Of a DNA stretch of 4,337 nt, positions 620 through 4,337 are shown one piece after another. The DNA comes from a virus (taxonomy: Duplodnaviria > Heunggongvirae > Uroviricota > Caudoviricetes). The notes under the pieces are model-generated. The model did no database searches, was not told where the DNA came from, and worked only from the letters and a program-made list of their open reading frames with translations. The DNA lies in IMG/VR virus record IMGVR_UViG_2648501165_000001. The stretch is one strand, 5' to 3'. The first letter of the stretch is position 1. Every line of letters begins with the position of its first letter. Position numbers and translations under genes: made by a program.

Positions 620-1108
620 TCAACATTTCGCANNNNNNNNNNTACTCATTCTCCTGATTTCCCAGAGCACACGAGGAATACCACCGTTTCCGACCGGATC
701 GCGTTTACTCCGCAGGGCGACGCTTGATTCCGCCCAGCTTTTTCTTGGAGGAAGCTCTTTCACACGAACAAAACCAGCTGCGCGAAGAGATGCTCCTGAT
801 TCATCTGCCTGGGTGTACGTAATACAACGTTGATAACCCATAGCTTTTGCTGCCCGCCAGACAGCACCATAAAGCGCGCTGTTAGCGTTGCGTTCTCCTG
901 TGGTACATGTGCGATTTACTTCAAGCGTTAATCCATCGTCCAAATGTCGTGCAACAGGTCGACCAGCTGTCGCCACACCTATCAATTCTCCGGCATTATT
1001 TCTCAGACCAATGCTGAATTTATGCCCCACTGGTGGTTTATTGTGTCGGTGGTGCTGTGCGATAAATTCCTGCGCCGCTTTCAGCGTTATAGGTGAAATG
1101 ACCATCAC
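620..1108 (-). CDS. Conserved phage hypothetical protein, 162 aa, with HHRH motif; possibly GNAT/acyltransferase-like fold; C-terminal end interrupted by an N-run
   Basis: ORF track 620..1108. GTG at 1108..1106 is followed immediately by ATG at 1105..1103 (MMVISPIT...), with AAGGAGGAG upstream (plus 1113..1121). The stop TGA (1107..1105) of the upstream Ea22-like gene overlaps this start region. The C-terminal half (NANSALYGAVWRAAKAMGYQRCITYTQADESGASLRAAGF) resembles the C-terminal motifs of GNAT-fold proteins by eye; this is unverified. The last ~7 codons span the 10-N run, so the true stop and C-terminus are uncertain. Confidence 0.7.
   Translation of the reverse strand: MMVISPITLKAAQEFIAQHHRHNKPPVGHKFSIGLRNNAGELIGVATAGRPVARHLDDGLTLEVNRTCTTGERNANSALYGAVWRAAKAMGYQRCITYTQADESGASLRAAGFVRVKELPPRKSWAESSVALRSKRDPVGNGGIPRVLWEIRRMSXXXXAKC
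634..643. other. Run of 10 ambiguous bases (N); assembly gap or masked bases
   Basis: Literal nnnnnnnnnn in the sequence at 634..643, inside the 3' end of the 620..1108 CDS. Confidence 0.95.
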
Positions 1109-1698
1109 TCAGACTCCTCCTTGATGCCAGCGGCGCTTGCTGATTCTTCATATGCGCGTTTAGCAGCGTTAAGGATTGCTGCCAGTGGCGTATAGCCGCC
1201 ATCCATTCGGATTGTGTTGTGGATGCCAGCCATTGTGTCGCGCAATTTGCTGTGGCTAGCAGACAGTTCTGCTATGCGCTTACTTCCATCCGCGATTACT
1301 CCCTCGTAATACTCGCGTTGCTCGTTGAGTTTTGATTTTGCTTCCTCAAGCTCAACACGCAGTTTCCCTACCGTTAGCGCAATATCCTCGTTCTCCTGGT
1401 CGCGGCGTTTGATGTATTGCTGGTTTCTTTCCAGCTCATCCAGCAGCGCCAAGACGGTAGCCGGATTGGCTGCGGCGATGAATTCAGCATTGGCCTGCTG
1501 TTCCATTTGGAAATCTTCATCGAAACCGCTTTCAGGATGCGCTCCTTCAATTCTGCAAATGGGAATATATCCAGCAGCCTCGCGATGAATTAGTGCATCA
1601 TCACCATCAAATCGGCTCTCTCCATATTCGAGAGACCACTCACCACACGTTGCTTTTTCTGCCTTTTCACGCAGTACCTGATAGTCAATCTTGCTCAC
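1105..1698 (-). CDS. Ead/Ea22-like family protein, paralog A (197 aa from GTG start)
   Basis: The ORF track gives 1105..1731 starting at an ATG with no ribosome-binding site. I prefer GTG at 1698..1696, which has a perfect AGGAGG (plus 1705..1710) 6 nt upstream and forms a GTGA overlap with the stop of the upstream gene. The N-terminus [21 protein letters not shown]... followed by a coiled-coil-like region (LALLDELERNQQYIKRRDQENEDIALTVGKLRVELEEAKSKLNEQ) fits the lambdoid Ead/Ea22-like family as I remember it. Confidence 0.75.
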   Translation of the reverse strand: MSKIDYQVLREKAEKATCGEWSLEYGESRFDGDDALIHREAAGYIPICRIEGAHPESGFDEDFQMEQQANAEFIAAANPATVLALLDELERNQQYIKRRDQENEDIALTVGKLRVELEEAKSKLNEQREYYEGVIADGSKRIAELSASHSKLRDTMAGIHNTIRMDGGYTPLAAILNAAKRAYEESASAAGIKEESE

Positions 1699-1715
1699 TG
1701 GTTTCCTCCTTTGCG
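1661..1715 (-). repeat. Gene-junction direct repeat, copy 1 (~49-bp core 1667..1715)
   Basis: Minus-strand reading: cgcaaaggaggaaaccagtgagcaagattgactatcaggtactgcgtga. It matches copy 2 at 46 of 49 positions and contains the RKGGNQ* codons, AGGAGG and GTG start. Confidence 0.85.
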
Positions 1716-2324
1716 AATCTGTTCCGCCCATTCTTCAAGGGATTTCTCCGCATATTCACCAGACAGGCCATCAATCGGATGCGCTTCATTAGCCAACTCT
1801 TCTTTCGCTGACAAAATCATGCGTGTAACGTCGAAAACTTCACGCAAAGACTTATTGATAAATCCGTGATTGAAAGCAGCAGCAAGACGGCTTGCGGTAT
1901 AGTTAATACCCTCGTTGCGAGCCGCCGCACGAATTTCAGCCAGGAAAGCGTCGGTGGCTGGGGTTTCCGTGAAGTTGTCCTCCCAACCGTAGTACTCCTG
2001 ACGACAGAAGTTATTAAATTCCTTCTCCGACTGTTTAAGCTCCGCATTCTCTGCCGCCAGCACCGAAAACTTCTCGTGTGCCAACTTAACAGCCGCATCA
2101 GCCTGCTTAATTGACTCAATCGCTTTCTGTTGGTCTTCGGCCAGCTCCGCTAAATTAGCCTCCAGTTCGGCTATGCGTTCGTTTAATGCATCTCGTTCAT
2201 CCAGTAGCGCCAGCACAACCTGAGGTGTGACTTTCATACGAAATGCCAGCAATTTTTGAGGCGTTGCTACTGTTTCAATTGCTACTGCCGCCTCACGCAG
2301 TGCCTGATAGTCAATTTTGCTCAC
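1695..2324 (-). CDS. Ead/Ea22-like family protein, paralog B (209 aa), mosaic, coiled-coil rich
   Basis: ORF track 1695..2324. The start is GTG at 2324..2322 with AGGAGG (plus 2331..2336) 6 nt upstream; an in-frame TGA lies 15 codons upstream with no alternative start. N-terminus [13 protein letters not shown] is near-identical to paralog A and shares the internal motif VLALLDE(R/L); the rest is divergent and heptad-like ([27 protein letters not shown]). It ends ...RKGGNQ*, with the stop overlapping the GTG of paralog A. Confidence 0.72.
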
Positions 2325-2341
2325 TGGTTGCCTCCTTTGCG
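2287..2341 (-). repeat. Gene-junction direct repeat, copy 2 (~49-bp core 2293..2341)
   Basis: Minus-strand reading: cgcaaaggaggcaaccagtgagcaaaattgactatcaggcactgcgtga. Same layout as copy 1: RKGGNQ stop, AGGAGG, 6 nt, GTG, SKIDYQ.LRE. Confidence 0.85.
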
Positions 2342-2488
2342 CAACATCGCATTCAGATATTTGTTGTCATTAACAGAACCGAAACTCTTTCTCTTAAGCA
2401 ATTCCTCTCTCGAGGGCATTGGCTTTACGCGTTGGCGAATAATCATTTCTGCCGGAAGAATGCCGGGATTGTATGCAAGTCCTCTCAT
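2321..2488 (-). CDS. Small hypothetical protein (~55 aa) ending in RKGGNQ
   Basis: ORF track gives 2321..2521 (66 aa), but the ATGs at 2521 and 2506 have no ribosome-binding site. ATG at 2488..2486 is preceded by GAGGAA at 7 nt spacing, and that site overlaps the TGA stop (2501..2499) of the upstream 98-aa gene. Predicted product: [55 protein letters not shown]. The start choice is uncertain. Confidence 0.55.
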
Positions 2489-2498
2489 GGTAAATTCC

Positions 2499-2795
2499 TC
2501 AGTCATTACTGATAGCGCCATAGCGTGAGCGGTAATTACGCAGGCGCGGGTCGATATATTCAGGGAATTTGTCTATTGTCGCTTTTCGCAACGGTCTCAT
2601 TGCTGTTTCGTTTGTTCGGTCCTTCTCCTGTTTTAGCGCGAGTTGTATATCGCGTCGGTACATCCGTTCTGCTTTTGTTTCTGGTGTCAGAGCAAGAAAC
2701 GCGTCGAAATTGTTTTTGATATTTTCCAGCACCTCCGCCTTGGAGCTACCGGAGCAGTTGCGCGGGTCATCCGCACCATACAGAGGCGCTGGCAT
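2499..2795 (-). CDS. Hypothetical protein, 98 aa; sits immediately downstream of the recombination genes
   Basis: ORF track 2499..2795. ATG at 2795..2793 has a weak AAGG about 9 nt upstream and lies 23 bp downstream of the SSB-like gene stop. The gene is co-directional and tightly packed with its neighbours. No recognisable motifs by eye. Confidence 0.6.
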
Positions 2796-2818
2796 AATGG
2801 GAGCCTTATTTTCAGTAA

Positions 2819-3406
2819 TCAGAAAGGAGGGTAATCGTTCTGGCTGTAACCATAATCATCTGCATGATTATGGCTTACGTTTTTAGAGCGATTGTCTTTA
2901 TCTTTGAGGCTGGCAACCATGTTGGCGATAGTTTCTGGTTGCTTGCCTTCTGCCTTTTCTTTAAGGGTTTGACCTGTTTGTGCAATAAACGGGATGCGTA
3001 TTTCCATCTGGTAGCTGTCTGCGCCAGTCTTTTTGTTTGTGGTTAATACTTTCTGGAGCACTAACCCGATTTTCTTTCCATGAAATTCAGGTGCAACAAA
3101 TTTACTGGCGGAAACCATATGTTGCGTTAATTGTCCAATCCCGGCACACCCCATCATGGCGTGAACGACATTTGCGCCAAATTTGTTTTCCGTGCCGTCA
3201 TTTTTCTGAACACAGACGCTAAGATACTGGATTTTACGTCCGTCGTCGGATTCTCCAGAAAACTCAATAAATTTGGCTCCTTTTTCTGATTGCTTGAGTT
3301 CTGCTTCAGTAATGGTAATTATGTGAGCGCCAGTTTCGTTAATAAAACCACCTTGCCCTGCGGTCAGTGCTGCTTCTTCGTTATAAGTAAAAATTACGTT
3401 GCTCAT
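2819..3406 (-). CDS. Putative phage ssDNA-binding protein (cognate partner of Sak4), 195 aa, with an SSB-like C-terminal tail ...DDYGYSQNDYPPF
   Basis: ORF track 2819..3406. Its ATG (3406..3404) overlaps the Sak4-like stop in an ATGA arrangement, with AAGGAA upstream. The C-terminus is acidic/aromatic and ends in P-F, like the partner-binding tails of bacterial SSB (DDDIPF) and T7 gp2.5. Adjacency to a Sak4-like ATPase mirrors the HK620 Sak4/SSB pair. The SSB assignment is an inference; the N-terminal region is not a canonical SSB by eye. Confidence 0.65.
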   Translation of the reverse strand: MSNVIFTYNEEAALTAGQGGFINETGAHIITITEAELKQSEKGAKFIEFSGESDDGRKIQYLSVCVQKNDGTENKFGANVVHAMMGCAGIGQLTQHMVSASKFVAPEFHGKKIGLVLQKVLTTNKKTGADSYQMEIRIPFIAQTGQTLKEKAEGKQPETIANMVASLKDKDNRSKNVSHNHADDYGYSQNDYPPF

Positions 3407-4083
3407 GCGGCGTTTTCCTTAATTTGATGAACATTATTGATGCCGTAGTAATCACAAACAGTGGCATCGACGAAAGAGAGATCGTTATCAATCTCATTGG
3501 AATCAAACATTCCCATTGGGGATTTAACAGTGTCTGCACCGTTGTTTTTCGTGGTGAAAAAGAACTGGTCATCGCGGGTAAGAGTGCGAAGAACTATAGT
3601 AAACATGCCTTCGACAGTGATTTTCTCGTCCAGCATTTTGCCGATAGTCTTCATTTTCACGCGCCCCATAGGGGTTTCTTCGGTGTGCGCAAGAAAATAG
3701 ACTCTCAGGTCATCAGGCGCATCCTGTGCAGCCTTAATGACCTCCCATGCGTGGCGGCCTATCTCAGTAAATTTATCAAACGATTTTTCTTCTGAGCGGC
3801 GCATAAACTCATTGCTCATCACATACTGGAAGTCATCAACAATAACGATTCTTTTTCCGTATTCGTGAGCACGCTTAATTACAGCAACTATTACGTCCCA
3901 TTTGTCAGTGGTAACTACGGTTCCTTTTTTTGCTCTGGCATCCCATGCAAGCCAGTTTTTTGATTTAAATGGTAGCGGCTTGCCTATTGGTTTTATAAGT
4001 ATTGCTTCCTCTGGATTGATATTTCTCATGCTGGTTGATTTTCCGGTGCCAGACTCACCGAGTATTAATATCGCAGTTCCCAT
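3403..4083 (-). CDS. Sak4-like (AAA_24-type, RecA-core) P-loop ATPase; phage recombination protein, 226 aa
   Basis: ORF track 3403..4083. GAGGTGA Shine-Dalgarno (plus 4087..4093) lies 3 nt upstream of ATG 4083..4081 and overlaps the stop of the upstream small gene. Walker A GESGTGKST is at residues 9-17 and a Walker B-like hydrophobic run RIVIVDD follows. Size and motif layout are typical of phage Sak4/AAA_24 proteins. Confidence 0.85.
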   Translation of the reverse strand: MGTAILILGESGTGKSTSMRNINPEEAILIKPIGKPLPFKSKNWLAWDARAKKGTVVTTDKWDVIVAVIKRAHEYGKRIVIVDDFQYVMSNEFMRRSEEKSFDKFTEIGRHAWEVIKAAQDAPDDLRVYFLAHTEETPMGRVKMKTIGKMLDEKITVEGMFTIVLRTLTRDDQFFFTTKNNGADTVKSPMGMFDSNEIDNDLSFVDATVCDYYGINNVHQIKENAA

Positions 4084-4091
4084 AATTCACC

Positions 4092-4280
4092 TCAGAATGG
4101 TAATTCGGACGGGGAGGGAAGAAATTCGCGCTCATTCATGCGCTCTCTTTGTGCCTGCCATAAGCAAAGTTGTTTCTTTGATTTATCTCCCGCTTTACGC
4201 CAGTAACGAGCCTCAGCAATGTGATACTCTCTTTTTAATCGACTTAACTCTGGGGTTTTCGCCAGTTCTACCGGAATCAT
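4092..4280 (-). CDS. Small basic hypothetical protein (~62 aa)
   Basis: ORF track gives 4092..4292 (MEVKMIPVEL...). The second ATG (4280..4278) has a strong GGAGGT (plus 4285..4290) 5 nt upstream and forms an ATGA overlap with the stop of the partial upstream gene, so I prefer it. Product: MIPVELAKTPELSRLKREYHIAEARYWRKAGDKSKKQLCLWQAQRERMNEREFLPSPSELPF, rich in K and R. Confidence 0.55.
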   Translation of the reverse strand: MIPVELAKTPELSRLKREYHIAEARYWRKAGDKSKKQLCLWQAQRERMNEREFLPSPSELPF

Positions 4281-4337
4281 TTTGACCTCCATTTTCTGTA
4301 GGCTTCTACGGCTTCACGAAACATCTTTTCATCGCCA
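4277..4337 (-). CDS. 3' end of an upstream co-directional gene (C-terminal residues ...GDEKMFREAVEAYRKWRSK*), start beyond the right window edge
   Basis: The minus-strand frame is open from the window edge to TGA at 4279..4277, which overlaps the ATG at 4280 in an ATGA arrangement. This is the same coupling pattern seen throughout the window. Only 20 codons are visible. Confidence 0.45.
   Translation of the reverse strand, partial: GDEKMFREAVEAYRKWRSK

Follow-up and report, generated by a model that had tools for sequence, protein, structure and literature searches.

The stretch of DNA analyzed here (the window; 4,337 nucleotides) was matched over its full length, at 99.7% identity, by Escherichia phage TL-2011a (accession number, JQ011316), a Sepvirinae Stx-type lambdoid phage originating from an O103:H25 outbreak strain. 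This match is interrupted only at 633..642, where the window has 10 N in place of 193 bp of the phage record. In TL-2011a, the window is positioned in the leftward early (pL) operon, between N/kil and xis, and all sizeable genes of the window are encoded on the minus strand (Table 1). The HkaM-like ORF is 66 aa long when read from its first ATG (annotated homologs, 62 aa) and is separated from sak4 by an 8-nt spacer containing a GAGGTG Shine-Dalgarno motif; abc2 lies directly downstream of ssb, in the position of hkaJ in phage HK620.

Table 1. Coordinates of the genes assigned in the window and the profile matches on which the assignments are based
Feature	Coordinates	Strand	Profile match or position
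HkaM-like small ORF	4092..4292	-	phrog_1723, E 1.4e-32; directly 5′ of sak4; hkaM position in HK620
sak4 (HkaL-type), 226 aa	3403..4083	-	phrog_2872, E 1.5e-108; Pfam AAA_24, 31.5 bits
ssb (HkaK-type, 'SSB-2', DUF669-like), 195 aa	2819..3406	-	phrog_743, E 3.3e-66
abc2, anti-RecBCD (RecBCD hijacker)	2499..2795	-	Pfam Anti-RecBCD_p2 (PF11043), E 1.5e-35; phrog_656, E 5e-45
DUF2737 gene	2321..2521	-	Pfam, E 3.5e-30
Ead/Ea22-like gene	1695..2324	-	Pfam Ead_Ea22
Ead/Ea22-like gene	1105..1731	-	Pfam Ead_Ea22
Mom-like gene	620..1108	-	phrog_1384, E 1.4e-43

No Pfam or PHROG match to Red-beta, Erf or RecT was obtained among the window ORFs of at least 40 aa, as the first-pass annotation, made from the sequence alone, had claimed for the window, and none was obtained among the further TL-2011a genes scanned from N to excisionase. 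As no other annealase was found in the genes scanned, the Sak4-SSB pair together with Abc2 is taken as the recombination module of the phage. P22 has erf/arf/abc1/abc2 in the slot occupied here by Sak4-SSB-Abc2, and lambda has gam/bet/exo there.

The region 2400..4337 was also scanned for promoters and terminators. Promoter-like sites were not found there; 7 terminator-like sites, including 6 on the plus (non-coding) strand, were returned and taken as chance matches.

The Sak4-type ATPase

The 226-aa ORF begins with MGTAILILGESGTGKSTS and carries a Walker A motif (GESGTGKS) at residues 9-16 and a Walker-B-like stretch (RIVIVDD) at residues 77-83; the 226-aa protein with an N-terminal Walker A had been described at the outset with the correct coordinates and motif. 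The matching PHROG family (phrog_2872, 'Sak4-like ssDNA annealing protein') covers residues 1-220 of 226, the Pfam AAA_24 match exceeds the gathering score of 27 and was shared by 54 of 59 diverse Sak4 homologs, and G14, K15 and D84 are invariant across the 59 homologs. The layout is that of the Sak4 family, with Walker A near the N-terminus and Walker B in a core-only protein that has no added RecA domain at either end (226 aa; about 220 aa expected). Because the PHROG matches of this protein and of its neighbor (phrog_743) are near full length, both ORFs are considered not to be chance ORFs.

A search of 1.84 billion representative proteins gave 1835 hits at E <=0.001 and supplied a profile of 59 Sak4 sequences. 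Against PDB sequences, this profile returned only weak, non-significant matches, mostly spanning the P-loop (RAD57, E 0.39; Twinkle, E 1.5), and phmmer searches of PDB sequences with Sak4 or SSB returned no meaningful match. Alignment of the profile with single-sequence E. coli RecA by hhalign gave a probability of 12% and covered the P-loop only, and a single-sequence AlphaFold2 model of Sak4 reached a pLDDT of 39.8, too low for use. The RecA-core relationship of Sak4 has been described by Lopes 2010 and Hutinet 2018 (PMC5928155), and the designation of the protein as a core-only RecA-like ATPase rests on this literature for its RecA-core homology.

The weakness of these RecA-core searches would also fit a generic P-loop NTPase (ABC, AAA+ or defence) that is not a recombinase and merely neighbors a small protein to which it is unrelated. 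AAA_22 was matched at its threshold (27.2 bits, threshold 27), ABC_tran, AAA_16 and nSTAND gave weak matches below threshold, and the gene name in RefSeq is 'AAA family ATPase' only. These weak NTPase matches, however, amount to about 20 P-loop residues, whereas it is the Sak4 PHROG that matches over the full length; moreover, ATP-dependent annealing has been demonstrated for a 99%-identical protein, and the pairing of the ATPase with ssb, including the 4-nt overlap, is conserved across genera. On the sequence identity to HK620 Sak4, this generic reading is effectively refuted and is hardly credible. A defence-ATPase assignment was rejected separately, with the sub-threshold PADLOC mad8 match confined to residues 1-23 (P-loop) and a weak PDC-S19 match to residues 20-86 (E 0.006). 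The first-pass annotation had named an ABC or defence ATPase as the outcome that would tell against Sak4; what was found of such matches was short and lay over the P-loop region, and the Sak4-like assignment stands.

Sequence, fold and tail of the 195-aa partner

The 195-aa protein ends with ...HADDYGYSQNDYPPF, the last six residues being NDYPPF. Its PHROG match (phrog_743, 'single strand DNA binding protein') is nearly full length, and searches of Pfam (up to E 10), NCBIfam and PDB sequences gave no match. Among the individual Pfam families, SSB (PF00436) was not matched, and DUF669 (PF05037) was absent for the window protein and weakly matched in 4 of 19 homologs (best E, 0.019); the NCBI cluster is named 'DUF669 domain-containing protein'.

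An AlphaFold2 model computed with 18 homologs (pLDDT 80.5) has a core of the order strand-strand-strand-helix-strand-strand at residues 26-140 and disordered residues 177-195 (pLDDT <50), and the terminal F is invariant in the 18 homologs. The protein is accordingly described as an SSB with a predicted OB-like core and a predicted disordered C-terminal tail, an OB fold being what structure prediction had been proposed to look for. A protein lacking any OB-like fold or ssDNA binding had been regarded as speaking against the assignment; an OB-like core is predicted here, and the 99%-identical HK620 protein binds ssDNA.

In Foldseek searches with this model, the closest solved fold was PrgE of pCF10 (E 6.5e-4), and matches to bacterial SSBs were weak (E 0.01-0.1, TM 0.2-0.38), in keeping with the absence of a Pfam SSB match and with the earlier remark that the partner is not a canonical SSB. 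Among the BFVD viral models, the match to DUF669 proteins was at E 1.7e-12; two proteins annotated as SSBs, from Vibrio phage phi50-12 and Roseobacter phage RD-1410W1-01, matched at E 5e-8, and we take both phages to be N4-like. T7 gp2.5 was in neither of the PDB lists obtained for the SSB. The modelled fold is of the DUF669 / N4 gp45 / PrgE kind, not gp2.5-like and not close to the canonical bacterial SSB. The likeness to the DUF669/N4 gp45-type phage SSBs is one of fold, with a sequence identity of only 13-26%, and PrgE (PDB 8S4S/8S4T), at 13% identity, is a protein of an Enterococcus conjugative plasmid and not of a phage.

The tail of the window SSB resembles that of E. coli SSB, DDDIPF; T7 gp2.5 ends with an acidic stretch and F, not with P-F. 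The tail likeness to SSB noted at first holds through the P-F end, that to gp2.5 is loose in this detail, and any gp2.5 likeness of the protein is limited to its tail. E. coli SSB likewise uses a disordered acidic/aromatic P-F tail to recruit partners, and the HK620 protein is, like it, a tetramer. The structural matches also agree with an HHsearch that linked HK620 SSB to N4 gp45, where no direct link between HK620 SSB and E. coli SSB was found by HHpred (PMC5928155), and they are consistent with the 'SSB-2' label given in a Genome Research survey of 2025 that covered lambdoid Rec modules (PMC12315714).

Junction, identity to HK620 and probable function

The plus-strand letters at 3403..3406 are TCAT, i.e., ATGA on the minus strand, in which the stop codon of sak4 (TGA) overlaps the start codon of ssb (ATG), as had been read from the sequence before. 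An AAGGA Shine-Dalgarno-like motif is located about 9 nt 5′ of the ssb ATG, within sak4. The overlap probably couples translation of ssb to that of sak4, and the AAGGA motif could permit independent initiation of ssb. The same ATGA overlap was found in the pairs of Enterobacter, Xenorhabdus and Salmonella, whose Sak4 proteins are 92%, 66% and 52% identical, respectively, and this persistence supports a putative selection for tight co-expression.

Phage HK620 was found by tblastn. The window Sak4 is identical to HK620 HkaL (NP_112045) at 224 of 226 residues (substitutions I5T and N43E), and the window SSB to HkaK (NP_112044) at 193 of 195 (E153V and H179Q); the substitutions spare Walker A and the SSB's six final residues, and the last 15 SSB residues are the same as in HK620. 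Every base of the sak4-ssb junction equals that of HK620, and the HK620 gene order hkaM-hkaL-hkaK-hkaJ(abc2) is also the order of the window, which supports the early proposal of an HK620-type Sak4 plus cognate SSB module. In the Sak4 family as a whole, a cognate ssb adjoins about 80% of sak4 genes, as it does in the window and in HK620. We are confident that the region serves homologous recombination in a temperate lambdoid phage of the Stx type, being a module read leftward from pL and of the HK620 type hkaM-sak4-ssb-abc2.

The biochemistry that had been proposed at the outset, namely ssDNA binding by the partner, stimulation of Sak4 and deletion of the tail, has been published for HK620 (PMC5928155). 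HK620 Sak4 bound ssDNA only with ATP and did not bind dsDNA (Hutinet 2018, Front Microbiol 9:743, PMC5928155), and it annealed complementary strands in an ATP-dependent manner without strand exchange (PMC5928155). HK620 SSB eluted as an apparent tetramer, with an ssDNA affinity about 4-fold below that of E. coli SSB; it blocked RecA-mediated annealing and stimulated Sak4-mediated annealing only when the tail was present (PMC5928155). The interaction of the two proteins was detected only on ssDNA, and Sak4 bound SSB-coated ssDNA solely via the tail (PMC5928155). In oligo recombineering, HK620 sak4 alone gave 15-fold and the whole module 210-fold over background; sak4 and ssb alone, without HkaM, reached the level of the full module, Abc2 added nothing, and loss of NDYPPF from the SSB lowered recombineering 10-fold (PMC5928155). 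HkaM was called an 'orphan' in that study (Hutinet 2018, PMC5928155). A function for the window pair is transferred from these HK620 proteins, each differing at two residues, and would be the same by analogy.

In the mechanism proposed, Abc2 would turn host RecBCD into a 5′-3′ resection enzyme making ssDNA, following the literature on P22 Abc2, and the phage SSB, as a tetramer with an OB-like core, would coat this ssDNA, as indicated by the binding of the 99%-identical HK620 protein. The DNA-bound SSB would then recruit Sak4 by its disordered NDYPPF tail, and Sak4 would act as a 226-aa core-only RecA-like ATPase in ATP-dependent single-strand annealing, both steps being modelled on HK620. With the 4-nt ATGA overlap, the two partners would probably be made together, and the module would replace Red-beta, Erf or RecT, none of which was found among the genes scanned.

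The pair might instead serve mainly phage DNA replication (the rolling-circle switch or concatemers), with the SSB as a general replication SSB and recombineering as a secondary effect, which we consider unlikely but worth keeping in view. Two structural neighbors of the SSB are the annotated SSBs of presumed N4-like phages, in which the SSB would be a replication and transcription factor. Rec modules have been implicated in the theta-to-sigma switch (PMC12315714), and in Staphylococcus phage Phi11, Sak4 is described as essential both to growth and to the formation of genome multimers, the ssb mutants of Staphylococcus phage having a similar, milder phenotype (Neamah 2017, to the extent cited in PMC5928155). 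By analogy with these multimer data, recombination may be only part of the role of the pair. On the other hand, sak4 and ssb are located in the pL recombination slot beside abc2 and not in the O/P replication region, and the HK620 pair raises oligo recombineering as given above; the two roles are, moreover, mutually compatible. A recombination module remains the preferred reading of the pair.

Distribution of the module and variation of the SSB tail

The module is already known, having been characterized in 2018 and catalogued in 2025, and what is new here is the phage background; the new biology is little. HK620 is a P22-like Lederbergvirus, and the carrier of the window is of the Sepvirinae Stx-type lambdoid kind (TL-2011a). 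With both proteins 99% identical in such different phage backgrounds, the module has passed between phage lineages as a cassette.

Dozens of Stx2a-converting phages carry the pair with 100% identical DNA, and in Stx1a-converting phages its DNA identity is 99.8-99.9%; of 5426 complete E. coli genomes, 179 have the full sak4-ssb pair, in all cases on the chromosome. These data bear on the notion that the module is a decaying remnant of a cryptic prophage, unexpressed or non-functional, to which the 10-N run, a source that is possibly a prophage or a draft assembly and the deposition of TL-2011a as a partial genome might lend some weight. Against it, both ORFs are intact and of full length with Walker A and the tail kept, the N run is about 2 kb off in another gene, and many of the Stx2a-converting phage genomes carrying the identical pair are those of inducible phages; such decay is very improbable.

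The order HkaM-Sak4-SSB2-Abc2 was found at 73 of 80 related IMG/VR loci, and HkaM was upstream of sak4 at all 73 Sak4-type loci, counts that express gene-order prevalence and not tail-partner statistics, the loci scanned being mostly near-identical copies. In the complete E. coli records listed, the RefSeq labels of the pair are 'AAA family ATPase' and 'hypothetical protein', and in the annotation of TL-2011a both sak4 and ssb are hypothetical. The main practical value of the analysis is the correction of the annotation of both genes.

An 87%-identical copy of ssb was observed behind GamL-RecT-Exo(YqaJ) in VT2phi_272, PA2 and P13374-type Stx phages and at 7 of the 80 IMG/VR loci. These GamL-RecT-Exo-SSB2 modules occupy the same early-left region, with RecT and a YqaJ-type exonuclease replacing Sak4 and without Abc2. 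Stx phages thus have at least two recombination cassettes, Sak4-SSB-Abc2 and GamL-RecT-Exo-SSB, with one SSB type common to both, and this two-cassette use bears on the recombination of mosaic, toxin-carrying phages.

The homology between the RecT-linked and the Sak4-linked ssb extends from about 4 codons into the gene to about 6 codons before the stop. The RecT-linked SSBs end with YG[GS]D[NS]F or YNYDQF, versus NDYPPF in the window, and the tails of the Sak4-linked SSBs are NDYP[PAS]F, DDDIPF, DDDIDF and DDAPF. The last approximately 6 residues of HkaK-type SSB might accordingly be imagined as an exchangeable partner-specificity peptide, a rather doubtful proposal drawn from what are essentially two lineages; the difference in the tails could equally stem from one past recombination event and carry no functional code. 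In the 2025 survey, TL-2011c is listed with SSB-2 and a type-4 annealase, and a 'shuffling of partner interaction domains' was left unanalysed there (PMC12315714). If the tail does set the recombinase, new SSB-annealase pairings for recombineering could be made by swapping tails. Among the Sak4-linked homologs, some (Xenorhabdus) carry an exact copy of the DDDIPF end of E. coli SSB.

Suggested exchange at the ends of the SSB gene and variation of its tail

In VT2phi_272 (locus L003, 2065..4588), an 87%-identical SSB gene of the HkaK type is preceded by GamL-RecT-Exo(YqaJ), not by Sak4, and the same arrangement was found ahead of such an SSB gene in locus L091 (1079..3588) and in 7 of the 80 related IMG/VR loci (L078-L084). 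Homology between RecT-linked and Sak4-linked ssb begins approximately 4 codons inside the gene, and the last ~6 residues of the RecT-linked SSB are YG[GS]D[NS]F or YNYDQF, versus NDYPPF in the Sak4-linked copy. The comparison suggests that cassettes were exchanged at the two ends of ssb, and the tails of HkaK-type SSBs are possibly partner-specific.

The ATGA overlap was retained in divergent Sak4-SSB pairs from prophages of Xenorhabdus, Salmonella, and Enterobacter (L085, 2324..3615; L087, 2333..3585; L089, 2324..3582). The SSB tails of these pairs are DDDIPF, DDDIDF, and QDDAPF, the first being the same as in the E. coli-type SSB of the host. Tails other than NDYPPF thus occur at the Sak4-recruiting position.

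Annotation of the pair and the HkaM-like ORF

The full sak4-ssb pair was detected in 179 of 5426 complete E. coli genomes. In the records listed (genome hits H141-H148), the sole RefSeq/PGAP names for the pair (window 2819..4083) were 'AAA family ATPase' and 'hypothetical protein', and both genes are hypothetical in the record of Escherichia phage TL-2011a. For a biochemically characterised Sak4-SSB pair, this naming is an annotation gap.

An HkaM-like ORF accompanied sak4 in all Sak4-type IMG/VR loci (73/73). HkaM was described as an orphan, and in its absence the full recombineering level was reached with sak4 and ssb alone (Hutinet 2018, PMC5928155).

Other genes of the window

Features neighbouring the sak4-ssb pair (window coordinates)
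Feature	Position	Strand	Remark
Mom-like DNA-modification protein homolog, pL operon	620..1108	-	phrog_1384, E 1.4e-43
Ead/Ea22-like coiled-coil gene, first of two in tandem	1105..1731	-	37-nt overlap with the second
Ead/Ea22-like coiled-coil gene, second of two in tandem	1695..2324	-	37-nt overlap with the first
HkaM-like small ORF, 5' of sak4	4092..4292	-	phrog_1723, label 'recombinase'

With the Pfam Mom model, the Mom-like ORF scored 24.2 bits, slightly under the cut-off of 27.1. Its translation contains XXXX because a 10-N run (633..642) sits within it; this run, which stands for 193 bp in TL-2011a (L001, 2017..2209), probably reflects a gap in the assembly or masking of the sequence. The TL-2011a annotation (L001, 2672..3073) gives 133 aa for the 208-aa Ead/Ea22-like ORF of the window, so that the two records must differ in the choice of start codon or by a frameshift.
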